Origin: Escherichia phage myPSH1131
Direction: 5' to 3' (one strand)
Sequence record: MG983840.1
DNA: 64,000 nt
The notes below the pieces were generated by a model, which saw nothing but the letters and a program-made list of their open reading frames with translations, did not search any database and was not told where the DNA came from. Position numbers and translations under genes: made by a program. Positions 19,355 to 53,433 of this stretch are shown here, piece by piece (position 1 is the first letter of the stretch; the number at the start of each line of letters is the position of its first letter).

Positions 19355-19428
19355 AGTGTAATTTCCTTATTTAATTTGAAAGATTGTTGCTCTCTTTGAG
19401 CGGTTATGTATAATATACATTACATATA

Positions 19429-20550: not shown

Positions 20551-20559
20551 AAAGACCTC

Positions 20560-22707: not shown

Positions 22708-22794
22708 TGAAGTCGTTCAATCATGAAATTGTAATCAACTGCCTCCTGTGTCAGGTGAGTAAGAGCACCTACTTCATACCGAAGAACGTCAGCG

Positions 22795-24972: not shown

Positions 24973-24993
24973 GAAAAGCCGCCCGAAGGCAGC
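24971..24993 (-). terminator. putative intrinsic terminator
   Basis: Minus-strand hairpin GCUGCC-UUCG-GGCGGC (one G-U pair) followed by UUUUCUU; copy at about 30300..30322. Confidence 0.45.
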
Positions 24994-25000
24994 TTCTTAT

Positions 25001-25177
25001 TTAACTGTTCACTTTAGCTTCAAGTGTTTCGTTTTCAATACTCAAGTCAATCACTACACCAGTAAGCTCAACGACTGCTTGGCGAAGGGCATCTTTACCC
25101 ATAGAGTGTACTTGAGATAAGAAGAAAGCTTTACCTTCTTCAGTGGATAGGGTTTCTTTTAATTCAGAAGCAGTCAT
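25001..25177 (-). CDS. small hypothetical protein (58 aa)
   Basis: Below track size cutoff; ATG 25177, stop 25001; repeated at about 30327..30503. Confidence 0.3.
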   Translation of the reverse strand: MTASELKETLSTEEGKAFFLSQVHSMGKDALRQAVVELTGVVIDLSIENETLEAKVNS

Positions 25178-25186
25178 TGATATTCC

Positions 25187-25381
25187 TTATGTTATGTTAT
25201 AAATTCGCATGATTGTACCACCGGTTAGTTCAATTTCGGCAATCTTCTCATCTCGTTCTAAATCTGTATACACTAGCACATTCTCAAATACACCTGTTGC
25301 GTCAGTATAAAGGATGTTATACTTCGGAGGTGGCTTACGGTAGATACCTTCCATCACTCTTTCTCCTCTCGTTCTTTCCAC
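25187..25381 (-). CDS. hypothetical protein (64 aa)
   Basis: ORF; paralog at 30512..30706 differs in the middle. Confidence 0.35.
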   Translation of the reverse strand: MERTRGERVMEGIYRKPPPKYNILYTDATGVFENVLVYTDLERDEKIAEIELTGGTIMRIYNIT

Positions 25382-25537
25382 AGTTCAGCAAGTTCTAAAT
25401 AAAACTCAGCTTCATCAGGACGTCCTTGTTCATTACAGATGGCGCTCTGACGATAACACCAATCCGATGGCATCTCTTCCACTTCAATCTCCTTGTTACG
25501 AACCAATCAATAAGAATAGTTCATTCATCTTATTTAT

Positions 25538-25729
25538 TCACTCTACCAATGCAGGTACTTCTATCCTTTTAACTGTGAATGACTTGTTTGGAAACTTTCG
25601 AACTAGCTCTGCTGCTTTGGTTATTGCTAAGTTCTCTGTCTCAAAGATACACAGTTGACCATTTAATGCTACGAGAGTGGAGCCACCACTGTAGATGGCC
25701 CAAGATTGATAATAACCACGAACACTCAT
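25538..25729 (-). CDS. hypothetical protein (63 aa)
   Basis: ORF; paralog at 30863..31057. Confidence 0.35.
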   Translation of the reverse strand: MSVRGYYQSWAIYSGGSTLVALNGQLCIFETENLAITKAAELVRKFPNKSFTVKRIEVPALVE

Positions 25730-25737
25730 AACTCACC

Positions 25738-27582
25738 TTAGTGCGTATGCATCCAGTTAAGTCCAATCTGACAATCAGAGGCCAGAGGACATTCCATATT
25801 CAAATACTCACCAGCCTTCTTAACACAAAGCTCGGTGTGCTCTTTGAGTTTCTGTACATCGTTACGATTAACTGAGAACTGGCCCTCGTCGTGCATATCA
25901 ATTACCTTAGCACAACGAACTCCATCCTTCTCAATCCACTTGTTAAGGAACATCATAGCGTATTTCATAACAACAGCACCAGCACATTGCAGGAGAGTGT
26001 TAAGTGCTTTATGAACCATAACTTTACCAGTGGCATCTCGTCTCATTGTAATCTTACGACCATCAACACCAATCAAGTATCCTTGAGCAGCTTTCTCTGT
26101 CATACGATCAATGAGGATTGCAATACATGGGTTCTCTGCCAAGAAACGTGCTCGCATCACTGAACCTTCGTCAGCCCCACCACCTACAATTGAGCCAAGC
26201 TTAGCGTCGCCAGCACCGTAGTTGAATGCATAGATAAACGTTTTAGCATTGTCACGAGTAGGAAGACCAGCAAGTTTCTGGTTGTGGGAGTGGATATCAC
26301 CTTCAAGGAGAATATCACGATACATAATAGCAGAAGCTAAACCACGTTCTGCCAGAGCTTTCTTAGCTGGGTTGTTCTCTTCGATTGCCTCAGCAAGCAT
26401 ATCCCTACACTCTTTAATGAGGTAGTGAGCTAGCATACGAAGTTCAAGTCCAGAACCATCATACCCTAAGAATACTTCTTTGCCAGCGGGTATGTAATAT
26501 TTGTAAGCACCTATAGGTTTGTCTTTCTTCCCCGGCTTACCTTTCTCGTAAATTACGTTAGTACCTTTTCGTATATAACAACCATCAGGAACAACGTTAG
26601 TAATAACGAAAGGATGAGAATGATCACTGTCTGAGTTATAGTCAGACTCAAACAAACTGCGGCACTCGTGACCAAACAAACCACGGGAGGGAATATTAAC
26701 CACGATACGATGTTTGAATCGAAAAGTCGGCGTAGCGCAGCTGTTAGCTTCTGCCGAAAGTTTACCATCTTCGCGCTCCTTTGCTATGAGTCCACTGATA
26801 AGACCTAGCCTGTGAGCCGCTACAACGCGTCTCTTAAGCAAACTTCCGACACTCCCTAGCTCACCCCCTAACCCTTCTTCAAGGGTCTCCTCGAGGTTTG
26901 TAGGAGCTGTAGGCCACTTGTTTGATGTGGCTAGTGCTTTCTTAATCTCATCAAACGTTACAGGATTACGGCGATTAGGGTTTAATCCCAAACCAAATAC
27001 GTAAGCCTTCATATAATTCTTAGTTTTAAACCTGAAATGCTTTTCTAAGAACTTCTTAATATCAGCGTCAACCATCTCGGCTGTCTGCTTCTGCTTAGCA
27101 TTGCCTCGCATCCAAGCAGTATACCATGCTTGGTACGTTCCATACTTTCTCATATCTTTCTTGATTTCGAAAGTATTCCAAGGCTTCTTAGATACGTTAA
27201 ACTCTGGAGGAAGAAATCCCTCATCCATAAGAGCTTCTTTAACTCGTGCATCTTTCGATGGGTCAAAGTCTACGTATTCGACACAGGTGAAAGCTCCACC
27301 AATGTCTTCCCTCTTCAGCCCAACCCTATCACAATAGGCTTGAGGCCACTTCTGTAAAGCTCCAGACTTCTTAAACGGCTTCATATAAGTAGAGCCATCT
27401 AATCTCATCTTAGGTAAGAGAGGAATCAGTTCTTTGTCAATATTAACAATAATCTCTTTAAGGAGGTGAACATACCACCGAGCATTTCTTCGGTTGAAAC
27501 TCACTCCGTGCTTTGCTTGCTTAGAGATTATATCAGCGACAGTCATCTCTGTCAAAAATGGAAGAGCGTCCGGGTTGCTCAC
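25738..27582 (-). CDS. DNA polymerase, family A polymerase domain
   Basis: Motif A YDGSGLELRMLAHY, motif B RDNAKTFIYAFNYGAG, motif C VIDMHDEGQF; no 3'-5' exonuclease motifs in this ORF. Confidence 0.85.
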   Translation of the reverse strand: MSNPDALPFLTEMTVADIISKQAKHGVSFNRRNARWYVHLLKEIIVNIDKELIPLLPKMRLDGSTYMKPFKKSGALQKWPQAYCDRVGLKREDIGGAFTCVEYVDFDPSKDARVKEALMDEGFLPPEFNVSKKPWNTFEIKKDMRKYGTYQAWYTAWMRGNAKQKQTAEMVDADIKKFLEKHFRFKTKNYMKAYVFGLGLNPNRRNPVTFDEIKKALATSNKWPTAPTNLEETLEEGLGGELGSVGSLLKRRVVAAHRLGLISGLIAKEREDGKLSAEANSCATPTFRFKHRIVVNIPSRGLFGHECRSLFESDYNSDSDHSHPFVITNVVPDGCYIRKGTNVIYEKGKPGKKDKPIGAYKYYIPAGKEVFLGYDGSGLELRMLAHYLIKECRDMLAEAIEENNPAKKALAERGLASAIMYRDILLEGDIHSHNQKLAGLPTRDNAKTFIYAFNYGAGDAKLGSIVGGGADEGSVMRARFLAENPCIAILIDRMTEKAAQGYLIGVDGRKITMRRDATGKVMVHKALNTLLQCAGAVVMKYAMMFLNKWIEKDGVRCAKVIDMHDEGQFSVNRNDVQKLKEHTELCVKKAGEYLNMECPLASDCQIGLNWMHTH

Positions 27583-27598
27583 TTTATACTCCTTTAAA

Positions 27599-28021
27599 TT
27601 ATTGGTAAAGTAAATCTGTAAATGCTTGGTTATCTTCTACTACATTCAGCATGGTTGCTTCATCACTATAAGCCCTAACTGTCCCGTTGACAACTGTCCA
27701 AGGAGGGGGCGGAGGTGGTGTATGTGTAGCTCTGGCTTCACGAGGTTGTTCTCGTACCAGATGAGCCACAACCCTCTGATTAGCAACTTCTTCTCTTTCT
27801 CTAATAGCTCTCTGAATGTAGGCCAGCTTCATACCCCAAGCTTCTTCAAACTCTTGAGGGTGTTTATCACTGATAACCACATACTGACGTTCAGGAATAC
27901 CAGAGCGAATCTCTGATAATAATTCATGGAACAAATCTAGTTCATGTTCAGTGAGATTCATTTCGATATCATCCCACTTGAGAACTAAGAAACGGTTTTG
28001 GTGTCTAGCTGGTAATGGCAT
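27599..28021 (-). CDS. hypothetical protein (140 aa) with poly-Pro tract
   Basis: ORF directly upstream of the polymerase gene; no recognisable motifs. Confidence 0.35.
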   Translation of the reverse strand: MPLPARHQNRFLVLKWDDIEMNLTEHELDLFHELLSEIRSGIPERQYVVISDKHPQEFEEAWGMKLAYIQRAIREREEVANQRVVAHLVREQPREARATHTPPPPPPWTVVNGTVRAYSDEATMLNVVEDNQAFTDLLYQ

Positions 28022-28794: not shown

Positions 28795-29088
28795 CTAGAG
28801 ACGAAGCCAAGTTTGATAGTCAGCTTCAGTGTAATGGTTGTTTCGAGAGTTGTTTTTCATTTCCTTGAGAGTAGCTCTCAGGTCAATGTTATGCTCTCTC
28901 CTTGTTCTATTCGGGTCTGTATCTTCTAATAGATGGGAGTGATCACTACAAGAGTAGTGCTTATAGTGGTCCCTGTATCCTCTACTTGGAGAATACTTGG
29001 TCATTAAAGTTGCAACTCTTTTTACACCCTCTGCTTTACAGAATTTACAATAAGTGTGAATTGTACATCTTTTTGTTTCTGCTGACAC
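28795..29088 (-). CDS. Cys/His-rich hypothetical protein
   Basis: CTIHTYCKFC...HYKHYSCSDHSH suggests metal binding. Confidence 0.3.
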   Translation of the reverse strand: MSAETKRCTIHTYCKFCKAEGVKRVATLMTKYSPSRGYRDHYKHYSCSDHSHLLEDTDPNRTRREHNIDLRATLKEMKNNSRNNHYTEADYQTWLRL

Positions 29089-29098
29089 TATAACCTCT

Positions 29099-29413
29099 TT
29101 ATGAGCTTAAAGCTCCTTTGCGTGCTCCAGCTGCTTTTCCAGCTCGATCACCACTTTTGCCGCCGTTTGAACGGTTTGAGCTGACTGATTCAACACGTAA
29201 GTTGCTTGACGCATTAGAGCCTCCAGACTTGACAGCTCGTTTGTGTCCAACGTCTTTACCTCTGACAGCAGCTTTTCCATCGCGCTTTTCAACGATGCGA
29301 CGTGCACGGTGGCGCTGAGCATCTCCGCTCTTGCTCCCAATTCCCGTTTCACCGCGCTTGATCGCAGTCCTTCTTTCTTGTGCATAATCTCTCTTTCCTA
29401 CATGATCTGCCAT
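29099..29413 (-). CDS. basic G/S/K/R-rich hypothetical protein in a GC-enriched patch
   Basis: Locally GC-rich by eye; ORFs open in three frames so the frame assignment is uncertain. Confidence 0.25.
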   Translation of the reverse strand: MADHVGKRDYAQERRTAIKRGETGIGSKSGDAQRHRARRIVEKRDGKAAVRGKDVGHKRAVKSGGSNASSNLRVESVSSNRSNGGKSGDRAGKAAGARKGALSS

Positions 29414-29579
29414 TTAAAACTCCTTAATATATCAGTGTACACTAAGGAGTATACATTATAAGTTACTGTTAAGCTTTCTTTTCCATTGCTTTAACAATCG
29501 CCTTACAGAACCAGAACGAACAATGTCATCCGATTCTCCGTCTACAATCGCTTTCTTTCCAATTCTATAAGTGTGAACC

Positions 29580-31060
29580 CAAATCATTCTTCTTCCTCAT
29601 ATTCCCAATTTCTTTCATAATATCCAGAGTTGTAGTTTAGGGCGCATTTCTCGGCCTCTTCTATGTCGTCTGTGTTTAGGATATTTACCCATCCTCCGAC
29701 TTCATCAAAACCTTCTTCTACTTCGTTAAACCATACACTATACTTTTTCATCGAGAGGTTCTTCCCCAATCTTTTACATAGCATCGACCGTTAACCCACT
29801 TTGTCTCTGACTTAAACTCTTGAGACAACCTCACTTCACAGTCTTCTCTACTGGCATCTCCTCCGATATCAATCAGATACAGGAATAGAGCTATACCTAA
29901 AGCCCAAAGAATTATCTTCTTCATCGAATCACCAAAGGAGCAATTCCGCATTCTCTAAAAGTGGCAGGCATATAATCTACATCACCTTCAGATGATGTAT
30001 GACCAGCTCTCTTCGAGGAAGCATTCTAATCCAGATATCGACGAAGAAACCTAACTGTCGACACACCTCATCCTTCTGGACACCATTACAAAAGATGATA
30101 GGAATCTGCAAACACTCTGCATCAATCTTAATGTCATGATTATCGTACCCATTAGGCTCTGCAAAGCGATAAGTTACAAAGCGTACATCATAGCCCTTTT
30201 CTTGCATTAATGCCACTACAGAGCGCCACAGCTTTTTATCTGAGGTGTAAGTGTCATCATAATCTAAACCAATATTCATGTCAAATCCTTTAGACAAGAA
30301 AAGCCGCCCTAAGGCAGCTTCTTATTTAACTGTTCACTTTAGCTTCAAGTGTTTCGTTTTCAATACTCAAGTCAATCACTACACCAGTAAGCTCAACGAC
30401 TGCTTGGCGAAGGGCATCTTTACCCATAGAGTGTACTTGAGATAAGAAGAAAGCTTTACCTTCTTCAGTGGATAGGGTTTCTTTTAATTCAGAAGCAGTC
30501 ATTGATATTCCTTATGTTATGTTATAAATTCGCATGATTGTACCACCATTGGCTTCAATAGCAGCAACCATTTGGTTTCGTTCTTCATCCGTGTAAACTA
30601 ACACACTTCTAAACTCGCCTGTTGCATCAGTATAAAGGATGTTATATTTTGGAGGCGGTTTACGGTAAATACCTTCCATCACTCTTTCTCCTCTCGTTCT
30701 TTCCACAGTTCGGCTAGCTCTAGATAGAACTCAGCCTCATCAGGACGACCTTGTTCATTACAGATGGCGCTCTGACGATAACACCAGTCCGATGGCATCT
30801 CTTCCACTTCAATCTCCTTGTTACGAACCAATCAATAAGAATAGTTCATTCGTCTTATTTATTCACTCTACCAATGCAGGTACTTCCATCCTTTTAACTG
30901 TGAATGTCTTGTTTGGAAACTTTCGAACTAGTTCTGCTGCTTTGGTTATTGCTAAGTTTTCTGTCTCAAAGATACACAGTTGACCATTTAATGCTACGAG
31001 AGTGGAGCCACCGCTGAAGACGGCCCAAGATTCATAATAACCACGAACACTCATCACTCA
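29580..31060 (-). repeat. diverged segmental duplicate of the 24.3-25.7 kb gene block
   Basis: Same order of small genes and terminator as 24300..25735 with substitutions and a deletion in the 136-aa gene. Confidence 0.65.
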
Positions 31061-31422
31061 ACCTCAATATTATATAGAGTTTTCAGTGTATCTTTAATCC
31101 AAGTAATTCGTTTTTGGTTCTTGTGGTGTGATCTGTTATCTCTATCTCTGAAATATTGGTCACAGCCAAAAGGGTATGTATGGTCCGAGAATTTATCTTG
31201 GTTAAACATGTTCTTCATGTCATCCACGTCTAGATGTTTTGTGAAATAATAATACTTCTTATAACAGCGGAAGTTGAAGCATAGTCCGTGATCTTCGTTA
31301 AACCAAGGAGGACACTCTTCTGTTTGAGTTATATGATAATACTGGAGGAGGAAATCTTCCATCCCTCTCTCCTTGAATAAACACCTAAGTGTTCTATAGA
31401 TTATATTAGTTTCTTTCATCAC
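31054..31422 (-). CDS. Cys-rich hypothetical protein (122 aa)
   Basis: ORF unique to the second copy of the block. Confidence 0.35.
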   Translation of the reverse strand: MMKETNIIYRTLRCLFKERGMEDFLLQYYHITQTEECPPWFNEDHGLCFNFRCYKKYYYFTKHLDVDDMKNMFNQDKFSDHTYPFGCDQYFRDRDNRSHHKNQKRITWIKDTLKTLYNIEVE

Positions 31423-31427
31423 TCACC

Positions 31428-31793
31428 TTAGTGTGTGTGCATCCAGTTAAGTCCAATCTGACAATCAGAAGCCAGAGGGCATTCCATATTCAAATACTCA
31501 CCAGCCTTCTTAACACAAAGCTCGGTGTGCTCTTTGAGTTTCTGTACATCATTACGGTTCACTGAGAATTGACCTTCATCGTGCATATCAATTACCTTAG
31601 CACAACGAACCTTATCTTTCTCAATCCATTTGTTAAGTAACATCATAGCATATTTCATAACAACAGCACCAGCACATTGCAGGAGTGTGTTAAGGGCTTT
31701 ATGAACCATAACTTTACCAGTGGCATCTCGTCTCATTGTAATCTTACGACCATCAACACCAATCAAGTATCCCTGAGCAGCCTTTTCTGTCAT
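31428..31793 (-). pseudogene. C-terminal fragment of family A DNA polymerase (second copy)
   Basis: 121 aa matching the last ~120 aa of the 25738..27582 protein including HDEGQF; homology stops abruptly upstream. Confidence 0.6.
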
Positions 31794-31875
31794 ACGATCA
31801 ATGAGGGGTAATTACGATGCAGTGAACGCCCCATTTCAGGGTCATCACGCCTAGTGGAACCTGAAGAACCTGAAG

Positions 31876-32403
31876 TTATCCCTGAAGAACCTTCAACAGA
31901 TATCCCGTGTTCTGGAACTCATCAACAATAACAATAGCATCATTGAAAGAACGACCACGGAGATATTCCAGAGGTACAAACTCAATGTTACCATTTCCGA
32001 TTTGGCATTCATAGAATCCCTTACCATATCGCTGAGTAATAACATCAATGATAGGCATCAGGTAAGGTTCAAACTTCTCACGCATTCCTCCCGGAAGTAA
32101 CCCAAGAGAGTTGCCCATGCCGACAGAAGGGCGACTCAGAATGATCTTCTGAATCTTACCGCTCTTCAGTGCATCAATAACTGTGGAAGTGATTACAAAG
32201 GTCTTACCACAGCCCGCAGGAGCGTCTGTGAACACAACTTGTTTAGTCTTAATAGCATTGAGTAGCTCAGACTGAAACTGGTTCTGAGGGACTACAGGCT
32301 TTGCTAAAACCACCTCTTCATACTCTCGCTTACCTTTACGAGTAACAAGTGCTTCCCGACGAAGGTCTTTCCGTGATTCTTTCCGTGATTGACGACGACT
32401 CAT
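31876..32403 (-). CDS. phoH: PhoH-like ATPase, apparently C-terminally truncated
   Basis: Walker A DAPAGCGKT and Walker B IVIVDEFQN; ORF ends shortly after Walker B, short of a typical PhoH. Confidence 0.6.
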   Translation of the reverse strand: MSRRQSRKESRKDLRREALVTRKGKREYEEVVLAKPVVPQNQFQSELLNAIKTKQVVFTDAPAGCGKTFVITSTVIDALKSGKIQKIILSRPSVGMGNSLGLLPGGMREKFEPYLMPIIDVITQRYGKGFYECQIGNGNIEFVPLEYLRGRSFNDAIVIVDEFQNTGYLLKVLQG

Positions 32404-32585
32404 TTACGCTCTCCAATTTCTTCGTAATGACACTCAGTAGTTAAGCAGTCTTTACAGATTGCTGTATAAACCCTGACGTTAGTAAATCGTTTGTTCTTCC
32501 CTTTGGTTGGAGAGCCTTTGGCAAGCTCTCTGATAACCTTGTTACTTAAATGAAGGTTTGTTCCTTCACATTTAGAGCACTTCAT
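32400..32585 (-). CDS. zinc-ribbon protein (61 aa)
   Basis: CSKC ... CKDC spacing typical of a zinc ribbon. Confidence 0.35.
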   Translation of the reverse strand: MKCSKCEGTNLHLSNKVIRELAKGSPTKGKNKRFTNVRVYTAICKDCLTTECHYEEIGERK

Positions 32586-32901
32586 GGTTCATATCTTTAT
32601 GAATCCTGTAAACAGCTGTCGCCATACAAGCAACAGCCTCGTTGTGTGGGAGGTGCATCCCTGTAGAACCATCCCAATCTTTGAACTCATTGTCAAAGAC
32701 TCCGGTAGGCTCTGGATATAGAGCTTGCAGCTCCACTAGATCATTAGCAACTTGTTGCCATTTATCATCAGACCAGATAGGGTCATCCAACCAGTAATAC
32801 AAATAGGAATGGATGATCAATTGCCTTCTATGCCGATTGATTACTTCAGCGGGACTTATCTCACTTCCATTTGAAGTCCTAAATGTATTACTGTCAATCA
32901 T
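32572..32901 (-). CDS. hypothetical protein (109 aa)
   Basis: ORF; no confident motif. Confidence 0.35.
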   Translation of the reverse strand: MIDSNTFRTSNGSEISPAEVINRHRRQLIIHSYLYYWLDDPIWSDDKWQQVANDLVELQALYPEPTGVFDNEFKDWDGSTGMHLPHNEAVACMATAVYRIHKDMNHEVL

Positions 32902-33152
32902 TTCACAACCTTAAATTTGAATGTTGTTGGGTGATAATAATGCAACCTATTGATAGTGTGCTTTGTTTCGAGATATATCCTGCAAGAGTGGCACATGACA
33001 TGGGTCAGACCAGTTACAGGGTTAGGTTTGAAGTTGGCGACAGGCTTCTCTTTCTTACAGAAGCTACAGACTTTCTTTTCCATCTTTTCTCCAGTGGTCA
33101 ACGAATTGCTGAAACACCTTATGGTCGAATGTGAAACCACGAGCAATCCCAC
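32898..33152 (-). CDS. zinc-finger-like small protein
   Basis: CSFC ... CHSC pairs; true start possibly internal Met at 33083. Confidence 0.3.
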   Translation of the reverse strand: MGLLVVSHSTIRCFSNSLTTGEKMEKKVCSFCKKEKPVANFKPNPVTGLTHVMCHSCRIYLETKHTINRLHYYHPTTFKFKVVK

Positions 33153-33313
33153 ACTCTACGAAAGTAGAAGGCATATAGTCTACATCATCTTTAGACGTAT
33201 GACCATAAACTTGAATAAGCTTTTTAATCTTATCCTTCTCTCTTCGAGGAAGCATCCTAAATGCCTCCTGAATATCTGTAATATGTTTGATTTTCATCAG
33301 AAAGCCTCTGATA

Positions 33314-33715
33314 TTAACTCTCCAAAGTTTTCTTCAGAGCTGCCCATGAGATTGGGTAGAGCTTAGCCATCTCTTCATCTACGGATTTAGCAAACACTCG
33401 AACTTCATATTGAGCGTGAGATGAGAGTCGCTGACGACACAACTCAAACCAGCCATACAAAGAACCAGTCCACACCCACTCAGTGATCATCCCCTGAGGA
33501 AGAACAAATCGAGCTTGCTCTGGTGCAATAAATTCAATCAACTTGTCATATGTTGCTAGAGAAGCTTCATATGCATCGTTAATCAACATTAATGCTTCAG
33601 CTCGTTCTCCGTCGATGAGTTGAATCCCTGAACCTGCATGGAGGTCCGAAGGTCTCGCAAAAATCTCTTTAGGGATGAAGACTTCAACTGCTCCATCTTT
33701 ATACCGCCGGGACAT
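33314..33715 (-). pseudogene. ThyX-like (flavin-dependent thymidylate synthase) remnant
   Basis: Upstream in-frame SWNEMSRRY resembles ThyX RHR...S..E.S.RY signature but RHR is replaced; ARFVLPQGMITEW...LRVRAGMRVGQ fits ThyX C-terminal region; N-terminal part absent (in-frame stop at 33800). Confidence 0.4.
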
Positions 33716-33809
33716 TTCGTTCCACGAGAATCCAACCTGATGCTTGCCCAGCTGTCTCGCAATTGCGATAGGTGCTTTGCATCGGAAACTGACTTGTATC
33801 TACTACCAA

Positions 33810-43597: not shown

Positions 43598-44401
43598 TTA
43601 GTAGTTTACAACAGTGCCATCATTCAGGGTAAGACTGTTAATCTGCAACACACGACCAAGCTGGCGATCACCAATCGGTGCATTCCACCCAGAGCGGTAG
43701 AAGTTACGACCACAGAAGAACAAGATCACATTACTTGCTACAGTTGAACCATTCTCAGGGTGCTTGATATTAGCGATGTAATAACCACGACGTAAAGTAC
43801 GACGGGTTACAGGGTTGATCTCTAACCCTTGTTCTTCCACTTGCATTGTTTCAGGAACAGGCTCCGAAGACTCTTCAACAACTGGTTCAGCTGTCAATGC
43901 AAAGTTCTCGTCATCTGCTGATTCAGCAAACTCTTCCACTTCTTCAACAGGCAGTTCGTAAGCAACGCGGTAGTCAGGATCAACACCAGAGAAACTCTTA
44001 ACAAACTCAACGATGTTGTGAGTGTAAGTTTCCAGAGTTGTTCCAGTCAGGCCCGGAGCTGTATTAACTTCCAGAACCCAAGCGTTAGTACCTTTGCTAA
44101 TCAGGTCAACAGCACCGAAGTTCAAACCCAGAGCAGATACAGCTTTGTGGGCTTGAATCAGAACCTGATCAGGCGGCGCATCTTGGAAGTTTGAGGAATA
44201 AACCCAACCAGTATGATGGTTTCGAACGTCTTCACGATAGGAAGGATCTTCACGATAACCATTACGGCGAATCTTTTTCTGAACATAGGTGATAACACCT
44301 TCAAACACATGAACACGCCATTCACGAGTGAAGATGTGAGAGCTAACACCCGGAGCTGCTTTCCAACGATACCACGTTGACGTTATCGTTAAACGCTTCA
44401 T
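43598..44401 (-). pseudogene. 5'-truncated ATP-grasp gene copy with chimeric N-terminus
   Basis: 267 aa; residues after REWRVHVFEGV match the ATP-grasp protein; first part contains a 31-nt patch identical to 52259..52289. Confidence 0.5.
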
Positions 44402-44472
44402 TTTCCAGTCAAAACCGCTGTCCCAGTTAGTTTATCCGAACTAGCCTCATCTTTCGAAGAGGCTAAAGCAGA

Positions 44473-44658
44473 TTACTCTGTAATAAAGATTTTGATTACA
44501 CCGCAGATTGCTGCACTTTCAAACACTGCAACAGCTTCACTTCCTTGAAAGAAGGCCACTTTGCCATCAGAGAAGTTAAACATGTCAGCATCGAGGTCCA
44601 TTGCTCGCATCTCACCAGCTGCATTGGTATCTTTAAACAGAACTTTATACTTATTCAC
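44473..44658 (-). CDS. small protein (61 aa), copy 3
   Basis: Two substitutions relative to copy 1. Confidence 0.4.
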   Translation of the reverse strand: MNKYKVLFKDTNAAGEMRAMDLDADMFNFSDGKVAFFQGSEAVAVFESAAICGVIKIFITE

Positions 44659-44903
44659 AGATATGTTACTCCCTTGTCTTGTTGTGCTTCAGTGATGATA
44701 CGCTCTACACATTCCATAGAGTACTTATCACCACGTTTTAGGAAAGTTACAATTGCAGAGAATTGATTACCAATCATTCGCTGATTAGTAATACCCAACT
44801 CCTCACACAATTTACGCAACTCTTTACGAGAGCCTACAATAAGAGGCTCTTTTTGTTCCATCATTCCATTTTGTACTAGATCTTCCAATGAAAACATATC
44901 CAT
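44655..44903 (-). CDS. small protein (82 aa), copy 3
   Basis: Near-identical to copies 1 and 2. Confidence 0.4.
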   Translation of the reverse strand: MDMFSLEDLVQNGMMEQKEPLIVGSRKELRKLCEELGITNQRMIGNQFSAIVTFLKRGDKYSMECVERIITEAQQDKGVTYL

Positions 44904-44909
44904 ATATCC

Positions 44910-46070
44910 TTAGTAGTTTACAACAGTGCCATCATTCAGGGTAAGGTTATTAATCTGCAACACACGACCAAGCTGACGATCACTAATTGGTGCGTTCCAT
45001 CCAGAGCGGTAGAAGTTACGACCACAGAAGAACAAGATCACATTACTTGCTACAGTTGAACCATTTTCAGGATGCTTGATGTTAGCGATATAATAACCAC
45101 GACGCAGATTACGACGGGTTACAGGGTTGATCTCTAACCCTTGCTCTTCAACCTGCATTATTTCAGGGACAGGCTCCGAAGACTCTTCAACAACTGGCTC
45201 GGAGCTTTCCGCTGATAGTGCGTAATCCTCATCACCTGCTGGTGAAAATGTTTCTTCCACTTCTTCCACGGGAAGTTCGTATGCAACACGGTAGTCAGGC
45301 TCAACACCAGAGAAGCTCTTAACAAACTCAACGATGTTGTGAGTGTAGGTTTCCAGAGTTGTGCCAGTCAGGCCCGGAGCTGTATTAACTTCCAGAACCC
45401 AAGCGTTAGTACCTTTGCTAATCAGGTCAACAGCACCGAAGTTCAAACCCAGAGCAGATACAGCTTTGTGAGCTTGAATCAGAACTTGATCAGGAGGCGC
45501 TTCAGTGAAGGAGTTAGAATAAACCCAACCAGTATGATGGTTACGAATATCTTCACGATAGCTTTCCAGTTCACGATAACCATTACGACGAATCTTCTTC
45601 TGAACGTAAGTGATAACACCTTCGAACACATGAACACGCCATTCACGACGTGGGCCTTGGATGCCTTTGGTGTACAGAGGAGCATCCGCAACACCTTCTC
45701 GCGGAAGACGAACAGTGATCCCCTCACCAGAGTGACCAGTCAAGGTTGCACGTTCATAAACAATTTCATTCCGGTTCCAGTTCTGAGCTACTTCACGATC
45801 TACGGTGTATTCAACAGTTTTGACTTCAGCTAAACGCAGTGCGTTAAATGCTGCAACTTTGTTAGCGGCTCGGTTCAAGGCAACCACAGAGTTCAATACA
45901 GTTGCACCGCCAAAGAAAGAATCATTATATCGACGGTTTCCGTAGTTGACAACAATATCACCAACTCGAGAACGATAACGAGAACCCTCTGATACCAGAG
46001 ACATTACGTTAGCATTTAGTCGAAGTTCCTGAATCTTATCACGAAAGTGACCGCACCCATTATCAGCCAT
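44910..46070 (-). CDS. ATP-grasp family ligase (RimK-like fold) with unassigned N- and C-terminal regions
   Basis: Core LGLNFGAVDLISKGTNAWVLEVNTAPGL resembles ATP-grasp nucleotide-binding region; 386 aa. Confidence 0.55.
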   Translation of the reverse strand: MADNGCGHFRDKIQELRLNANVMSLVSEGSRYRSRVGDIVVNYGNRRYNDSFFGGATVLNSVVALNRAANKVAAFNALRLAEVKTVEYTVDREVAQNWNRNEIVYERATLTGHSGEGITVRLPREGVADAPLYTKGIQGPRREWRVHVFEGVITYVQKKIRRNGYRELESYREDIRNHHTGWVYSNSFTEAPPDQVLIQAHKAVSALGLNFGAVDLISKGTNAWVLEVNTAPGLTGTTLETYTHNIVEFVKSFSGVEPDYRVAYELPVEEVEETFSPAGDEDYALSAESSEPVVEESSEPVPEIMQVEEQGLEINPVTRRNLRRGYYIANIKHPENGSTVASNVILFFCGRNFYRSGWNAPISDRQLGRVLQINNLTLNDGTVVNY

Positions 46071-46475: not shown

Positions 46476-48640
46476 TTAACCTCTATTCAATGAACATTTA
46501 GGAGAATTACAATAAACTTGATTCATAGAACCAAGCGTACAATATCGGAAGTTTCGATGTTGTTCATAAATTGATGCTGCGTCTGCGTGCGTAGCTTTTA
46601 CGGGCAACAGTTGGATGTACCCGTTCTGGTAACATGTTGTGTATCCGAGGGTTGACCACATTGCTTTGGTGAAGTCAGTGCTTCGGTTTCCGTCGAAGCT
46701 GACGACAGTTTTGCGGAGAGCTGTTCGTGATTCAGGAAACACACCTGCTTTCTCAGCAGGTTCCTCCTTTTTTGGCTTAGTTGAGATTGCAAAAATACTG
46801 TTGCTACGTTTCTCAACATAAGCATCAACAACATCCTCCAGAGTGATGCCTGTCTGTTTCGCTGAGGAAGGTAATACAGTCATACGACCGATCATATCTT
46901 CAGTTACACGTAAAGCGAATTCAGGACGACGGGCGTTTGTTGTATCTGTTGCTTTAATCCAGACATAACCATCTTTGATCGTAGCATTAGACACTTTCTT
47001 CTTTACTTCTACAGCGCAGACTTTACAGATATCTTCACCACGAAGACGACTAAGTTCATCATCGAACTCATTCTCTGTTTTAACTTCACCGCAGATTTCA
47101 CAAACACCAATAGGAGTTTCCTCCTCCTCTTCCTCTTTAGGTTTAGTCAAACCTTCCAGACATTCAGGATGCCAATAGCACTGATATGCGAAGACTGCTT
47201 TAGGTGCATCCTTCCAATCAATGTGCTTGTCACAACCACCACAATCACCATGAGAGTGTGCTTCCCAGAATTTACGAGTGATAGTAACGCCATTCTTGTT
47301 GACGAAACTATCATTCATGTCAAAAGGGATATCATCATCAAAGTCAGCAGTAGTTGACTCAGGCTCCTTTTTCTCCAGAGATGGGTCAACAAAACGACCT
47401 GCTGTGATCACTAAACGAACCATAGCATTAACTTCGGAGATGCAGGATACCGTCCCACGGTAAACAATTTTAGGGTCTTTCAGTGCGTCCTGATAAGCCT
47501 TAATGTCTACGTTATGAACATCACCTTCAATGTACTCTTGAGACTTCTCATCGTAGATATAACCAATCATCTTACCACGAGAAGGAACAGCACCAGCAGT
47601 TGCATAAGGAACAAACTCATGCGGAGTGATTTCCACAGTCATATCGCGGCGAATATCAATGTTTCGATCGCTTGCGATTTTGTTTTGACTTACCACTGCG
47701 TTTCTTCGACGAACGTCTGCCGCTGTCACTCCCGGCTTCGTGTCGTAAGGATTGCTTGTACTGCTTTTTGAGGAACTTTGATAGTTGCTTTGGCTGTAGT
47801 TGTTCGAGTAGTAATTGCCCCAACGATTGATTACCGTAAAAACCGGAAGCTCGTGGGCGACCTCTTCAACCAGAGTCATGCTGTTGTTTGACATATCAAA
47901 GATATATTCTGTACCAACTTTGCATTCAAAATGCTCGTCAATACGGTTCTTGTGAGATCTAGAACGCTTCAGAATCCACATCAACATATCTTCTTCAGAA
48001 GCACCAAACCAATCTCTGTTACAACGTGCGAGGTGGAATGGACGCTCTTCGTTACGGATGATATGAAGACGATTATCAGAAGCATCATGCCAGATTAAGG
48101 TGAAAGCACCATCCAGCTTTTGAATAGTCTCTGCTGCACCAATAGTGTTAATAGAGTGGCAGATGTTCTCACTGTCTACCTCGAAGTTTTTGCTGTCAGG
48201 TAACAGATCTTGGTCCATCAAGGTTCCATTATGAACCAGAGTGATGTTACCATGTTGGAAAGGATGGGCGTTCTTGGCGTTAACTGCACCTTTCGTTGCA
48301 TGACTTATGAACCAGAGTGATGTTACCATGTTGGAAAGGATGGGCGTTCTTGGCGTTAACTGCACCTTTCGTTGCATGACGACTGTGACCAACAATCCAT
48401 GAAGGTGCTACAGTGTAAGCTGTTTCACCAGTGGTGTGCTTCTTGTACTCATCTTGTAGGATGAATGCGAAAGAAGGAAGAGCTTCTTTATAAGTGAAGA
48501 CTTCCTTAGTGCTTTTACGCTGACCAAAGATACCGGAGGAATGTTGTCCTCGGAATACTCCAGCATAAAAGAGTTGGTTAAATACGTCTAAATCAGTGCT
48601 TGACAGATTACCGCCAGCTAATACGATGCCACAAATTTTC
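46476..48640 (-). CDS. class-II glutamine amidotransferase (Ntn)-like domain fused to long C-terminal region; frame disrupted as assembled
   Basis: Upstream frame encodes (I)CGIVLAGG...FRGQHSSGIF and FQHGNITLVHNG, the Cys1 and HNG signatures; initiation position is ATT not ATG (RBS AGGTGG); 76-bp tandem duplication at 48229..48380 shifts frame; track ORF 46476..48395 is the downstream part. Confidence 0.5.
48229..48380. repeat. perfect 76-bp direct tandem duplication inside the GATase-like gene
   Basis: Unit TTATGAACCAGAGTGATG...CGTTGCATGAC occurs twice back to back (48229..48304, 48305..48380). Confidence 0.9.
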
Positions 48641-48956
48641 TAATCCACCTGAAGGGTAAACCCTTTCATCTAATTAACCTTTAAATTGTGCCCCTTTATC
48701 AGAGGCACCCATTGATTACAGCGCTTGCTCTAACTGATTTTCCAGATGGTCTGGAATGTACCCTGTGATATTGCTATCACTGTGACCAGACTCACGTAGT
48801 AAGTCAAAAATAGCACGAATACGTTGTTCTGGAGCGTGTCTTGAGATAGGTCTGCTGTACGAAGCATAACCAAAATCTCTTGATACAAGTTGTTAGCGTT
48901 CCCTCGTTCCCTCGAACATATCCAAGGAATCCATAGAAGTCTGACATAAGAGTAAG

Positions 48957-49742
48957 TCAACAAGAACCTCTCCGTTGGACTTCTGAATGCAAATCAGATT
49001 CATCCAGATTGTAATCCAGAGGAAGGTAAGGAAGCATTGGGGCAAATCGTACAGTATTTAAGTGCTCAATAAACTGATCATTGCTCATATCTGCGTTATC
49101 TAAAGCCAGCTTCTTCAACATCAAGAAGCGGTTAACCAGATTGAGAAGTTGACCACGTTTCCACTTAGGCTCACTGATACGGAACTCAATTGAACCGTAT
49201 TGGGCAAGTGGCAGAAGGTTCAGAGATGTATATTTATCCCATGAACGAACCAGACGGTTGAAGAATTCTTCACCATCGTAGTTAAATGCGTCAGAGGCAT
49301 TCATTACCTGTGCTTGTACCACTGCAAACGCAGGGCAGAAATTGCTACGGTAACGATGGTAGCCTGAACACTTGAACAACATCTTTTCATAGAAGGTCCA
49401 AGCAAGGATGGTCTTCTTGAGGATATTACTATCAGCATCCCTCATATCCATATGAACGTGAGTAGAGCAACGCCAAGTCCCCTCGGCGTGCGATTCAGCT
49501 ACTGCTTCACTCAGGTTGTTGATAGCGTCTAACAACTCCTGTCCGTTGTAAGGTCGTGAACATACCATTTCACAACCGTTACGCAGGGAACCATCCTCTG
49601 TGCAATCCCACATATCTGCTTCGATATGTTCAGAACCTTCGAGTTCAAGTTCAATACCGACACCGCACTGAAGTGCAATTGAACTATGCGCCTCAGTTAA
49701 ACGACCTTCTCGATATCCAAAAGTTTGCGCTACAGTTGTCAT
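48957..49742 (-). CDS. amidoligase-like (carboxylate-amine ligase-like) protein
   Basis: GVGIELELEG...EDGSLRNGCEMV...CSTHVHMDM pattern resembles putative amidoligase enzymes; assignment by motif memory only. Confidence 0.45.
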   Translation of the reverse strand: MTTVAQTFGYREGRLTEAHSSIALQCGVGIELELEGSEHIEADMWDCTEDGSLRNGCEMVCSRPYNGQELLDAINNLSEAVAESHAEGTWRCSTHVHMDMRDADSNILKKTILAWTFYEKMLFKCSGYHRYRSNFCPAFAVVQAQVMNASDAFNYDGEEFFNRLVRSWDKYTSLNLLPLAQYGSIEFRISEPKWKRGQLLNLVNRFLMLKKLALDNADMSNDQFIEHLNTVRFAPMLPYLPLDYNLDESDLHSEVQRRGSC

Positions 49743-50588: not shown

Positions 50589-51122
50589 TTATAAAGGCGA
50601 TACCACGTTGCTTAAACGTACGTTGTCCTCTTGGAGACGTGTATGCCGAAGTCGTTGCGTCGATGAAAAATCAATATCGTTTTGCGTAAACATGCCTACC
50701 ACTGCAAACGCAGGGCAGAAATTGCTACGGTAACGATGGTAGCCTGAACACTTGAACAACATCTTTTCATAGAAGGTCCAAGCGAGAATGGTTTTCTTGA
50801 GGATATTACTATCAGCATCCCTCATATCCATATGAACGTGAGTAGAGCAACGCCAAGTCCCCTCGGCGTGCGATTCAGCTACTGCTTCACTCAGGTTGTT
50901 GATAGCGTCTAACAACTCCTGTCCATTGTAAGGTCGTGAACATACCATTTCACAACCATTACGCAGGGAACCATCCTCTGTACAATCCCACATATCTGCT
51001 TCGATATGATCGGAACCTTCGAGTTCAAGTTCAATACCGACGCCGCACTGAAGTGCAATTGAACTATGCGCCTCAGTTAAACGACCTTCTCGATATCCAA
51101 AAGTTTGCGCTACAGTTGTCAT
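50589..51122 (-). pseudogene. truncated second copy of amidoligase-like gene
   Basis: First ~140 aa identical to 48957..49742, then diverges and stops. Confidence 0.5.
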
Positions 51123-51736
51123 AACGAATCCACCAACGTAATATTATAATTGCTAAGGTTTTCAGAAATGTGATGAAAGTGTTCCAGAAGTCGCATCGGT
51201 TGCTGACCGTAAGAGTCACGAGGTGCTTCCAGACCTACTTGCCCTACCAGTGCACCTTTATAATGCACCTTACCATCAGTAGGGTTGATGTAAATATAAC
51301 GAGTAACCAATCCCTCGAATTCAGGATTGAACAGACTGTAAACCATCTCCCCGGAGATAGCACGACCAACACCCGGAGCATTTCGAATCTTGTTACCCAT
51401 CAAACCCTTTGCTCTCTGACGAACAGGGTTAATATGAGTCCAGCTTACAGTGTTACCGTTATGGAACAGATAACCAACATCAGGTGATTCAAGAATCAAG
51501 GTTGGGTCGAACACTGGAATATTCATCGTAGTGTTTCGAAGGTGCCCTTGCTCATTCTTGTACCACTGCTCTACAACAAAATACAGAGCCTGCTCTGCTT
51601 CGTGAGAGAAGTCATCGCTGCGGAAGTTACCGCTCTGCTCAACACCAATCACAAAACATGGAAGGTTGATATTACCTGCTCGTTTAGCAATCCATGTACC
51701 ATTATAGTAATGAGAAAAATCAGCTACTAAGCTCAC
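51119..51736 (-). CDS. hypothetical protein (205 aa), second copy
   Basis: Collinear with 49739..50356 with scattered substitutions. Confidence 0.4.
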   Translation of the reverse strand: MSLVADFSHYYNGTWIAKRAGNINLPCFVIGVEQSGNFRSDDFSHEAEQALYFVVEQWYKNEQGHLRNTTMNIPVFDPTLILESPDVGYLFHNGNTVSWTHINPVRQRAKGLMGNKIRNAPGVGRAISGEMVYSLFNPEFEGLVTRYIYINPTDGKVHYKGALVGQVGLEAPRDSYGQQPMRLLEHFHHISENLSNYNITLVDSL

Positions 51737-51745
51737 GATAACCTC

Positions 51746-53059
51746 TTATGCTACCTGAAGGAGTTTGATCTGCTGGTCAGCTTCTTTAACGTTGTTCCCG
51801 TTAATGATTTCATGAAGCTTCTCAATCGGAAGGCGAGAGTGCAATGCCATCAGAGTGGACATATCACACTGCTGAACAACCTTGTCAACCTGATCGTAAA
51901 CAAACTTACGGTTTTCACGATCACTAATCCAGAAGTTAGACAGCGAACGGTATTCGATACCATAGTCTTTATAACGGATTGCAGATGCTTTGCCATAGAG
52001 TTCTTTACGGCGAGTATCTTTGTCCATGATTACTGCTGGGAGAGACAGGAAGTAGTCACACAGCACACCCAACATCATCTGAGTTTGTAGAGTGATATCT
52101 AAAGCACCTACTACACCAAGATGTACGTGACCGCCAGCAGTACGAAGTCCCTTGTTCTGAGAAGTGGGGGACGGATTTTTCTGACCAGTGAAAGCGTTGA
52201 AGTCAGGAGTACATCCAAAGATGAACGCTGATTCATTAAAGGTCTTCATTTCTTCTTCGGTGAAGATGTGAGAGCTAACACCCGGAGCTGTTTCCATGTC
52301 CAGTTTGTTCAGGACATTATTGGTAAGATCGATACCACGTTGCATGTTATCCAACTTGTCGTCTATTGCTTCACGTTGCGGTTTCATACTCGTCCGGGTC
52401 TTGATCTTTAGCAGCGTCTTCGTAAGGCCCTTAACCACTCTGACATTGTTTACTTGGCTCTCTTCATCTTCAAAATAGAAGGTTCGATCTAACATCAAAT
52501 AGAACAGACAACGATCAGCAGGAACATTCTCAGTTGCTACACCCATAAAACCTTTTTCGTGCCAGCGTAAACAGGAGGGACGATCTTTGTCCACAAATGC
52601 TTCCATAGCTTCCAGTACAGCACGAGGTGTGGTTCGGTGTTCAGGGTTTTTGTCGTTCCAACGTTCGATGTTATTTTTAGGAGGTGTGTCTTCATCTTCA
52701 TATGAACACCAACTTAAAGCTTCAGCTACGTGCTTTTCATCACGCCAGCGTCTGAAACCTAACATCTTCATGTGAGTTCCGGAGTTCCAGATATGCTTGA
52801 TTTTACACATATCCATTTCTCGGCTTAGCCGGAACTCTTCTCCATCAGCACTACGAACGTTAGCTTCTTCATGCCACACTCGAACGTGCATATTCCACCC
52901 ATGAGTTGCCTCATAAGTGTTAGGTTCAAAATATTCATCATACTCTTCATCGTCTTCATCAACGCCACCGTTATAGTTGCGAAGCTGAAGGAACCCATAA
53001 CAAGGGGGGTTGACCGTTAAAACATTACCTTCAGTATCTTCTAATGTTACTGGAAACAT
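51746..53059 (-). CDS. hypothetical protein (437 aa), acidic N-terminus, GGHVHLG motif
   Basis: ORF; LRTAGGHVHLGVVG segment; function not assignable. Confidence 0.4.
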   Translation of the reverse strand: MFPVTLEDTEGNVLTVNPPCYGFLQLRNYNGGVDEDDEEYDEYFEPNTYEATHGWNMHVRVWHEEANVRSADGEEFRLSREMDMCKIKHIWNSGTHMKMLGFRRWRDEKHVAEALSWCSYEDEDTPPKNNIERWNDKNPEHRTTPRAVLEAMEAFVDKDRPSCLRWHEKGFMGVATENVPADRCLFYLMLDRTFYFEDEESQVNNVRVVKGLTKTLLKIKTRTSMKPQREAIDDKLDNMQRGIDLTNNVLNKLDMETAPGVSSHIFTEEEMKTFNESAFIFGCTPDFNAFTGQKNPSPTSQNKGLRTAGGHVHLGVVGALDITLQTQMMLGVLCDYFLSLPAVIMDKDTRRKELYGKASAIRYKDYGIEYRSLSNFWISDRENRKFVYDQVDKVVQQCDMSTLMALHSRLPIEKLHEIINGNNVKEADQQIKLLQVA

Positions 53060-53070
53060 TATACCAACCT

Positions 53071-53433
53071 CTATTGGTTTTTAATTAACTCAATCGACTT
53101 ACGGATATAAAGAATATCTCGGAAGTTTCGATAGTTGTTCATAAATTGGTGCTTCTGGAAAGTAGCTTCTTCCAGCGCTTTCTTTGCTTCTGCGTAGCTT
53201 TTACGGGCAAGATGTACAACCCGATCTGGTAGCATGTTTGCATGACGGATGACATACTTGTGAGCTTTCATGTTGCTTTGCTCACGAGCAATCTTACCTT
53301 TAGCAACTTTGATACCATTTGCAATCCAAGCAAGTTCTTGCTCAAGCTCATCGTTGGACATTCCACCGAGGTTTGATGCAACCTTGTTCAGAGTTTCAAT
53401 ATTAACGTTGCCCTTGATGGGACGTGTATTCAT
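53071..53433 (-). CDS. hypothetical protein (120 aa)
   Basis: ORF; its 3' end is homologous to the 3' end of the GATase-like gene (46540..46650 versus 53110..53240). Confidence 0.4.
   Translation of the reverse strand: MNTRPIKGNVNIETLNKVASNLGGMSNDELEQELAWIANGIKVAKGKIAREQSNMKAHKYVIRHANMLPDRVVHLARKSYAEAKKALEEATFQKHQFMNNYRNFRDILYIRKSIELIKNQ

Follow-up and report, generated by a model that had tools for sequence, protein, structure and literature searches.

The gp83 gene of the sequence analysed here, a 64,000-nt stretch recorded for Escherichia phage myPSH1131 (MG983840.1; hereafter the window, at its full length), is split by an exact 76-bp tandem duplication, which is most likely no property of a replicating phage but belongs to the many lesions of a corrupted mosaic sequence. 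The ATT initiation codon of the same gene is evidently genuine, being fixed in Kuravirus and Suseptimavirus and not peculiar to the window.

The 76-bp duplication and the gp83 gene

The features of this region are:

46476..48636, minus strand: ortholog of phiEco32 gp83 (phi32_83), split by the 76-bp duplication
48280..48636, minus strand: ORF of the N-terminal fragment, gp83 residues 1–110 followed by KSCNERCS and a stop
48229..48304: first copy of the 76-bp unit, encoding ...HATKGAVNAKNAHPFQHGNITLVH on the minus strand
48305..48380: second copy of the 76-bp unit
46543..46640: foreign 98-bp segment, which in the alignment takes the place of 44 bp near the 3' end of gp83

Tandem Repeats Finder reported an array at 48229–48380 (period 76, 2.0 copies, 100% matches, score 304), and direct string comparison showed the units at 48229–48304 and 48305–48380 to be identical, in agreement with the first-pass annotation, which had described an exact 76-bp duplication breaking the gene. 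The array is the sole long exact tandem repeat of the 64-kb window, and an exact repeat of 76 nt cannot have originated by chance. Since the self-match at an offset of 76 is exactly 76 nt long, neither edge of the duplication shows microhomology.

Because the extra 76 nt equal 3 x 25 + 1, the reading frame of gp83 is shifted, as had been claimed. The ORF read in the ATT frame comprises 118 codons (48283–48636, with the stop codon at 48280–48282); it stops just short of N110-G111 and is without the oxyanion-hole Asn-Gly and everything downstream. A second ORF (46476–48395) holds the remainder of gp83. Deleting one of the 76-bp copies gave a single minus-strand ORF of 694 aa, close to the roughly 700 aa predicted earlier. 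Even so, this duplication-free ORF is not wild type, because of the foreign 98-bp segment near its 3' end. The segment is in frame (+54 nt), yet it abolishes the conserved CSEC (Cys-x-x-Cys) motif; it is assembled from pieces of the gp89 region ~5–7 kb distant, and scans of the public contig collections did not find it. The intact ORF of ~676 aa by which the Kuravirus gp83 group is recognized was not found in the window, where the gene is both split and altered by the foreign segment.

Uniqueness of the duplication was judged against ~70 sequenced relatives (68 or more records). In these relatives the junction probe maps as two pieces on one 76-bp span, i.e. all of them carry a single copy. 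A 30-mer spanning the junction had no match in viral_contigs, genome_contigs or metagenome_contigs, and the two protein products specific to the window, when looked up, were on record nowhere. Programmed frameshifting and a functional split gene were considered and rejected, since the relatives are all intact and single-copy; a functional split is also at odds with the position of the break, which parts the oxyanion-hole residues from the fragment bearing the nucleophile.

By its sequence, the gene is assigned to the class-II (Ntn) glutamine amidotransferases; it is orthologous to gp83 of phiEco32 and belongs to the Kuravirus amidoligase cassette. The window gene shares 97–98.8% nucleotide identity with 68 Kuravirus records and is neighboured by gp84 and gp82, a synteny common to phiEco32, SU10 and ES17. 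The deduced protein matches PHROG 4736 (E = 4.5e-201) and the Pfam families GATase_6 (54.9 bits, cut-off 27) and GATase_7 (27.3 bits, cut-off 25), with GATase_4 scoring 21.1 bits, under its cut-off of 23. A search of the PDB with the single gp83 sequence gave no match, but a search with the family profile did (E = 4e-14), aligning Cys1 to Cys1 of GlmS (1xff) and of PurF. Residues R28, N110, G111 and D128, which are invariant in 13 phage homologs, align to GlmS motifs, with R28, N110-G111 and D128 being the counterparts of Arg26, Asn98-Gly99 and Asp123 of the GlmS/PurF type.

The protein consists of this N-terminal class-II (Ntn) amidotransferase domain and a Cys-rich C-terminal region of ~450 aa. 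No Pfam match was obtained past residue 193 and no SIS domain was found; the PDB profile matches span the glutaminase domain only. Since neither a SIS domain nor any other C-terminal Pfam match is present, the product name 'L-glutamine-D-fructose-6-phosphate aminotransferase' carried by many records is unsupported; the adjoining amidoligase and ATP-grasp enzymes presumably provide the acceptor. The cassette has been hypothesised to be a peptidoglycan-modification cassette (PMC5498523). We consider the amidoligase/GATase cassette to be probably accessory.

The mosaic window and the origin of the duplication

The window lacks credibility as a single genome and encodes no viable phage. Its backbone is that of phage ES17 (99.8–100% identity), with ES17-identical blocks alternating with extra copies (88–96% identity to ES17) and with spacers of ~100 bp. 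The extra copies show a third-codon-position bias and are closer to other strains. Thus, the diverged duplications elsewhere in the window, with which the exact duplication had been contrasted, are not old paralogs but alleles of natural strains (MN03-like, 98.4%; phiEco32-like, 97.9%) lying beside ES17 alleles. The ~100-bp spacers are composed of 17–40-nt fragments from distant loci, and the frame is kept open in 2–3 of the 29 unmatched ones, close to what chance would give; the spacers are therefore neither selected nor coding-aware.

Compared with the near-identical ES17, the window contains more than 15 other anomalies that break genes, essential genes included. Such rearrangements are shared by none of the ~70 sequenced relatives, and the suspect junctions include stretches at 44328–44426, 50598–50696 and 52352–52451. 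The primase/helicase is in four fragments, gp25 is truncated, the genes for PhoH, ThyX and GGCT as well as gp80, gp84, gp86 and gp119 are truncated or broken, and gp62, 65, 66, 71 and 87 are missing. The features expected of a faithful genome, i.e. intact essential genes and colinearity with close relatives, were not found. Five more lesions are located inside 2.5 kb of the duplication, and the gene adjacent to gp83 is itself affected:

48716..49742 (3' boundary approximate), minus strand: gp84 amidoligase gene, broken by four lesions

Three of these are deletions, of 80 bp (junction 48982/48983), 1 bp and 4 bp (near 48839), and the fourth is a tandem insertion of 8 bp (48897–48904), all four of them absent from phiEco32, FH3, SU10 and ES17.

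We infer from this context both that the duplication is an artefact and what process generated it. An ES17-type backbone is interspersed with other Kuravirus alleles, deletions and ~100-bp junk spacers, as would be expected if strains of a mixture had been chimerically assembled or mis-joined, or if the sequence had been generated or perturbed in silico. Three explanations of the exact identity had been offered earlier, namely a recent event, a population variant and an assembly error; the context, with its more than 15 other anomalies, favours the third. The duplication differs from the other anomalies in being the only exact tandem event and in having no ~100-bp spacer. The left flank of the junction has a best match of 98.5% and the right flank one of 99.8%, with no decisive switch of strain ancestry there.

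It is improbable that the duplication is genuine and very recent, having arisen through replication slippage or illegitimate recombination, and that it constitutes a null allele of a dispensable gp83 in a real phage or sub-population. The exact identity of the copies fits a recent event. In addition, since the private synonymous (third-position) changes of the surrounding gp83 allele look natural, the underlying sequence comes from a real, unsampled strain, where a genuine duplication could have arisen. The cassette is missing in many podoviruses and annotated as accessory metabolism; if it is accessory, as seems probable, a knock-out of gp83 could be tolerated. However, the duplication is present in 0 of the 68 or more relatives and in no public contig, and the window contains fragmented essential genes and more than 15 other non-natural junctions; the lack of junction microhomology is a further, weak, argument. 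As the sequence as a whole is not a faithful genome, a single lesion in it is left without independent support.

If the duplication is an artefact, there is a slim chance that it is of a particular type, namely an uncollapsed overlap of de Bruijn-graph contig ends (k-1 = 76, k = 77) left behind on closing and rotating a circularly permuted contig. A k of 77 is in common assembler use, the length of the unit equals k-1 for this value, and the copies are exact and without microhomology. Nevertheless, nothing in the sequence points to an assembler, and the commonest assembler using k = 77 leaves overlaps of 77 nt, not 76 nt. Moreover, the scrambled ~100-bp spacers are not made in this way, and a second process would still be needed. 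We keep this type only as a low-confidence variant of the artefact reading, since it leaves the other anomalies unexplained. Since the window is a mosaic without a viable phage, this duplication, and probably most duplications of the window, should not be taken as biology.

The ATT start codon and the adjoining hairpin

The initiation region of gp83 has the following features:

48634..48636, minus strand: ATT initiation codon, with the TGT codon of the catalytic Cys (48633–48631) directly next to it
48645..48650, minus strand: Shine-Dalgarno sequence AGGTGG, 8 nt 5' of the ATT, as read from the sequence
48652..48665, minus strand: stem-loop AAGGG-TTTA-CCCTT, abutting the Shine-Dalgarno sequence

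On the minus strand, the start context reads AGGTGG (48650–48645), ATTAGAAA, ATT (48636–48634) and TGT GGC ATC. An N-terminus of the Met-Cys-Gly-Ile type, encoded as ATT-TGT-GGC-ATC behind AGGTGG, is thus present as previously described. The restored ORF begins with TAG-AAA-ATT-TGT-GGC; the in-frame TAG two codons 5' of the ATT (48642–48640) rules out a canonical start further upstream. Downstream, the first ATG in frame is codon 115, with no canonical in-frame start before it. The absence of a canonical in-frame alternative, the suitable Shine-Dalgarno spacing and the conservation of the codon are together what is expected of an AUU start. We propose that gp83 is normally translated from this conserved AUU codon and that the initiator Met would then be cleaved off, exposing the catalytic Cys1.

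The ATT is neither an oddity nor an error of this sequence: across 68 public phage records, identity in the 101-nt start region is at least 99%. The ATT start is in fact already known: it has been annotated in phiEco32 since 2008 (EU330206, paper 2008), and the gene is likewise annotated from ATT in SU10 and in both RefSeq records. Since the ATT is conserved in the relatives, an ATG at the initiation position, which the first-pass annotation had named as a possible outcome of resequencing, is not expected even in perfect reads. A Suseptimavirus homolog with 82% amino-acid identity has ATT too, and among 80 viral-contig homologs the codon before the catalytic Cys is ATG in 61 and ATT or ATC in 16. 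Between the window and phiEco32, all 6 differences in the first 85 codons are at third positions of the ATT frame. In SU10, the protein was detected by proteomics with 9 peptides (SU10 paper). A literature search on AUU start codons returned general papers only.

It is very unlikely that the ATT is no start, that the protein is instead made from the internal ATG (Met115), with the 114 upstream codons being an untranslated leader, and that the duplication consequently lies outside the real gene. Such a start corresponds to the 562-aa ORF that automatic gene calling places at the internal ATG in ES17, FH3 and most other records, and the expected mass given in the SU10 paper, 63.8 kDa, is that of the truncated model. 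The 114 codons in question, however, hold the catalytic Cys1, R28, the GH-R-AT-G motif and NAHPF, which remain conserved between phage families at identities as low as 33%, and without residues 1–114 the amidotransferase fold would have no nucleophile. Furthermore, the upstream substitutions are third-position changes in the ATT frame, homologs have their ATG exactly at the ATT codon, and a strong Shine-Dalgarno sequence is situated 8 nt 5' of it. Because gene callers disallow ATT starts, the initial 114 codons of gp83, and with them the catalytic cysteine, are left out of the gene in most GenBank records of Kuravirus, those of ES17 and FH3 among them.

In a position-specific hairpin count with controls, a positioned hairpin was found at 13 of 15 ATT/ATC loci versus 6 of 50 ATG loci. 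The sequence of the stem varies from locus to locus among the AUU/AUC genes, and with 14 ATT/ATC upstream regions aligned by MAFFT, RNAalifold predicted no pairs, the stems being out of register. In a rough tree of phage Ntn-amidotransferase genes, AUU/AUC starts occur in at least six separate branches, nearly always accompanied by a compact stem-loop next to a strong Shine-Dalgarno sequence. The initiation region GG(T/A)GGATTAGAAA-ATT-TGT-GG is near-identical in Kuravirus and a marine Melvirus-like phage, the proteins of which share 35% identity.

As a tentative idea, about which we have more doubt than confidence, the hairpin, the Shine-Dalgarno sequence and the AUU/AUC codon might form a dedicated translation-initiation module, perhaps sensitive to IF3 or setting the level or timing of glutaminase expression. 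The glutaminase would be potentially harmful under this proposal, and the module may have arisen more than once or been passed on through recombination. The recurrent hairpin-SD-AUU/AUC arrangement of this enzyme family is the sole item worth following up here; if true, it would represent a case of start-codon-level control in phages.

Comparison with known systems

The gp83 gene of phiEco32 (ABY52884.1 / YP_001671828.1, 'glutamine amidotransferase') shares 98.3–98.5% nucleotide identity with that of the window and has the same neighbours, the gp84 amidoligase gene upstream and gp82 downstream. Its 5' region is identical (AGGTGG-ATTAGAAA-ATT-TGT), and the CDS is annotated from the ATT. In contrast, phiEco32 encodes an intact protein of 676 aa, whereas the window copy has the 76-bp duplication and the 44-to-98-bp replacement near the 3' end. 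The class-II domains of GlmS and PurF (PDB 1xff, 1ecb and 6lbp) likewise have the Cys1 nucleophile right after the initiator, but gp83 differs from these enzymes in having neither a SIS nor a phosphoribosyltransferase acceptor domain.

With the general class of artefacts made up of chimeric or strain-mixture misassemblies and uncollapsed contig overlaps, the window shares alleles of different strains side by side, essential genes truncated at block boundaries and an exact short tandem repeat without natural counterpart. Unlike in standard assembler artefacts, the ~100-bp spacers made up of 17–40-nt fragments match no assembler signature that we could assign.

In E. coli, infC (encoding IF3) and pcnB are AUU-initiated, and IF3 discriminates against AUU starts. 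The gp83 start resembles those of infC and pcnB in that a conserved AUU lies behind a good Shine-Dalgarno sequence and a canonical alternative is absent; unlike in infC, the AUU/AUC codon of this phage family is accompanied by a hairpin abutting the Shine-Dalgarno sequence.

The 76-bp duplication and its effect on gp83

The window belongs to a phiEco32-like coliphage (Kuravirus, Gordonclarkvirinae), and the gene region considered here is matched by 68 public records at 95–99% identity. The broken gene is the ortholog of phiEco32 gp83, flanked by gp84 (amidoligase) and gp82.

46476–48636, minus strand: gp83, with its ATT codon at 48636–48634
48229–48304 and 48305–48380: the two copies of the 76-bp unit
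46476–48395: second ORF, carrying the rest of gp83

Tandem Repeats Finder returned one array at 48229–48380 (period 76, 2.0 copies, 100% identity), and direct string comparison bore out the exact duplication reported in the first-pass annotation. No other long exact tandem repeat occurs in the 64 kb of the window. At an offset of 76 the sequence matches itself over 76 nt and no further, which leaves no microhomology at either edge. The predicted loss of frame was also found: reading from the ATT, 110 codons are native, the frame changes at the second copy, and translation ends after codon 118. Dropping one copy gave a single ORF of 694 aa, in line with the roughly 700 aa expected. A probe spanning the junction aligned to each relative in two parts that share one 76-bp span, so all of them have a single copy. 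The junction-spanning 30-mer had no exact match in viral, genome or metagenome contig collections, and neither of the two window-specific protein products is on record among catalogued genes.

Mosaic structure of the window and probable origin of the duplication

Self-comparison of the window revealed many kilobase-scale direct repeats of 88–96% identity. Its backbone consists of long blocks at 99.8–100% identity to ES17, the closest relative. Between these blocks come additional copies of neighbouring regions, places where ES17 sequence has been deleted, and unmatched segments.

1–11037: block at 99.8–100% identity, corresponding to ES17 16832–27868
14222–20568: block at 99.8–100% identity, corresponding to ES17 29011–35356
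44427–46038: 100% identical to ES17
11038–14221, 20569–24380, 29415–31906, 41223–46038 and 50598–52451: examples of anomalous regions

The extra allelic copies are 88–96% identical to ES17, with differences concentrated on one codon position (e.g. 59/12/3 and 52/10/5), and they are closer to other phages than to ES17: 43115–44327 is 97.9% identical to phiEco32 and 11142–14221 is 98.4% identical to MN03. By their sequences, these copies are natural alleles of other Kuravirus strains. At one spot, a dispersed exact repeat of 208 bp (35290–35497 and 39700–39907, 4.4 kb apart), the extra copy coincides exactly with the ES17-type copy (ES17 47731–47938). The spacers, about 16 short segments unmatched to ES17, are not natural. 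About a dozen are 98–104 bp long, most of those 99–100 bp, and they are strings of exact 17–40-nt fragments, with skips, from loci kilobases away; an open reading frame is kept in only 2–3 of the 29 unmatched segments, approximately the chance level. A further record in this group, PP350014.1 (phage PH444), is an unannotated "UNVERIFIED_ORG" Kuravirus-like sequence that, at 114,913 bp, is about 1.5-fold the usual genome length and may be another problematic assembly.

Many genes are broken. The virion protein gp25 is truncated at residue 1115 of 1473, the primase/helicase is split into four fragments, PhoH, ThyX, GGCT, gp86 and gp119 are truncated, as is the ATP-grasp enzyme in all three of its copies, and gp62, 65, 66, 71 and 87 are absent from the window. 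On the minus strand, 51749–53080 is a single open frame made of gp88 residues 1–225, a 100-bp spacer (52352–52451) and gp86 residues 68–268; it is a chimeric ORF created by an anomalous junction, with gp87 wholly missing. Further lesions lie near the duplication.

48716–49742: gp84 amidoligase, with four lesions
junction 48982/48983: 80-bp deletion in gp84
1-bp deletion in gp84
48897–48904: 8-bp tandem insertion in gp84
about 48839: 4-bp deletion in gp84
3' part of gp83: 44 bp replaced by 98 bp

None of these occurs in phiEco32, FH3, SU10 or ES17, and the segment inserted in the 3' part of gp83 had no match in public contigs. The mosaic blocks, unnatural spacers, broken genes and nearby lesions together mean that the window cannot faithfully represent a single replicating phage; as written, it is a non-viable genome.

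The 76-bp duplication is most economically, and in our judgement probably, read as yet another lesion in a corrupted sequence, i.e. an artefact. The source could be i) an assembly in which several Kuravirus strains present together were mis-joined or fused into a chimera or ii) in-silico generation or perturbation of the sequence. As 76 equals k-1 for k = 77, an uncollapsed graph overlap is a conceivable cause, held with low confidence; no clear strain switch between the flanks was seen at the junction. The main rival, a real duplication of recent date that inactivated an accessory gene, draws on the natural appearance of the gp83 allele but has no independent support, and we regard it as unlikely. 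The initial interpretation is supported in part: among the recent event, population variant and assembly error proposed, the context favours the last.

The ATT start codon and the adjacent hairpin

On the minus strand, AGGTGG (48650–48645) is followed by ATTAGAAA and then by ATT-TGT-GGC-ATC, as first described. Two codons before the ATT there is an in-frame TAG, and no in-frame ATG, GTG or TTG occurs between that stop and codon 115, so that residues 1–114, which carry the nucleophile and most conserved motifs, need the ATT for translation. Within the first 85 codons the window differs from phiEco32 by six substitutions, each at a third position of the ATT frame, and 68 records show at least 99% identity over the 101-nt start region. 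The CDS is annotated from exactly this ATT in the GenBank record of phiEco32, in SU10 and in both RefSeq records. The ATT start thus appears genuine, is conserved and is already on record; an AUU start is indeed uncommon among bacteria at large, though not within this family. SU10 proteomics has detected the protein.

Because ATT is not accepted as a start by gene callers, the annotated gp83 begins internally and lacks its catalytic N-terminus in most Kuravirus and Suseptimavirus records, e.g. ES17 (NC_070984 54267–55955), FH3 (OR886155) and SU7 (MZ342906). The automatic annotations of ES17 and FH3 begin at Met115, leaving a 420-bp "gap".

Distant homologs have their start codon at exactly the same position.

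ATG at this position: Cronobacter phage 009; Proteus phage 3H10_20; Vibrio phage Vp_R1; Salmonella phage SE131; Aeromonas phage LAh_9; Pseudoalteromonas phage HP1; Pseudomonas phage p2-10_Or1; Salinivibrio phage CW02

Across 80 IMG/VR loci, Cys is directly preceded by ATG in 61, ATT in 12, ATC in 4 and TTG in 1; of the remaining two, one has TGC before Cys with ATG preceding, and the other lacks Cys in the aligned column. The Paundecimvirus phages K4 (a Pseudomonas phage) and FBPa8 have ATT-ATC-TGT and ATT-ATT-TGC, respectively. Their start may be ATC, or ATT one codon further upstream, leaving a one-residue propeptide. In each of these records the annotated start is an internal one further downstream.

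The ATT/ATC loci have a compact stem-loop (stem 5–8 bp, loop 3–5 nt) ending 0–3 nt before a strong Shine-Dalgarno sequence.

48652–48665, minus strand: hairpin of the window
Hairpin-bearing loci of the survey: L016 (FBPa8), L020 (K4), L021, L064, L065, L073, L075, L079, L082, L089, L091, L095, L098

The stems vary by locus (AAGGG/CCCTT, AACCTC/GAGGTT, GGGGT/ACCCC, GCCCT/AGGGC, ACGACA/TGTCGT and others). A positioned hairpin was found in 13 of 15 distinct ATT/ATC loci vs 6 of 50 ATG loci (Fisher's test, p about 1e-7, uncorrected for phylogeny), the rate in shuffled controls being 21%. The ATT/ATC loci are scattered over six or more positions of a rough neighbour-joining tree, with ATG sisters lacking the hairpin. 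The marine Melvirus-like phage T4S1-k141_470236 (L021, PQ867847.1) shares about 35% protein identity with Kuravirus, and its initiation region is nearly identical (AGGAGGATTAGAAA-ATT-TGT-GG vs AGGTGGATTAGAAA-ATT-TGT-GG at 48631–48650 of the window). In Kuravirus, an alternative fold is predicted to be able to sequester the Shine-Dalgarno sequence. These data suggest a possible selected initiation module of hairpin, Shine-Dalgarno and AUY (AUU or AUC) start, and this start-site architecture is the sole lead meriting a small follow-up.

The gp83 protein and known systems

By sequence, the N-terminal domain of gp83 is a class-II (Ntn) glutamine amidotransferase. Pfam class-II GATase models match residues 76–193 with scores above the gathering thresholds, PHROG 4736 is matched with an E value of 4.5e-201, and a profile of 13 phage homologs matched the glutaminase domains of GlmS (1xff) and PurF, Cys1 on Cys1. 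R28, N110-G111 and D128 are invariant in the phage homolog alignment. The C-terminal two-thirds contain several Cys-x-x-Cys pairs (e.g. DCGGCDKH, VCEICGEV and ICKVCA), the C-terminal region of the relatives' gp83 has CSEC...CNSPKC, and an acidic linker also lies in this region; putative zinc-ribbon-like modules are suggested.

The gp83 cassette also includes a COOH-NH2 ligase, an ATP-grasp enzyme and a gamma-glutamyl cyclotransferase; it is conserved across several podovirus groups, and a role in peptidoglycan modification has been hypothesised (PMC5498523). No isomerase or PRTase domain was found in gp83, and its C-terminal 450 residues (46476–47900) have no Pfam family match. GlmS shares with gp83 the glutaminase domain with Cys1, but its SIS domain is absent from gp83; because of this absence and the unmatched C-terminal 450 residues, the widespread product name "L-glutamine-D-fructose-6-phosphate aminotransferase" is unsupported. 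All the features fall within known kinds of system.
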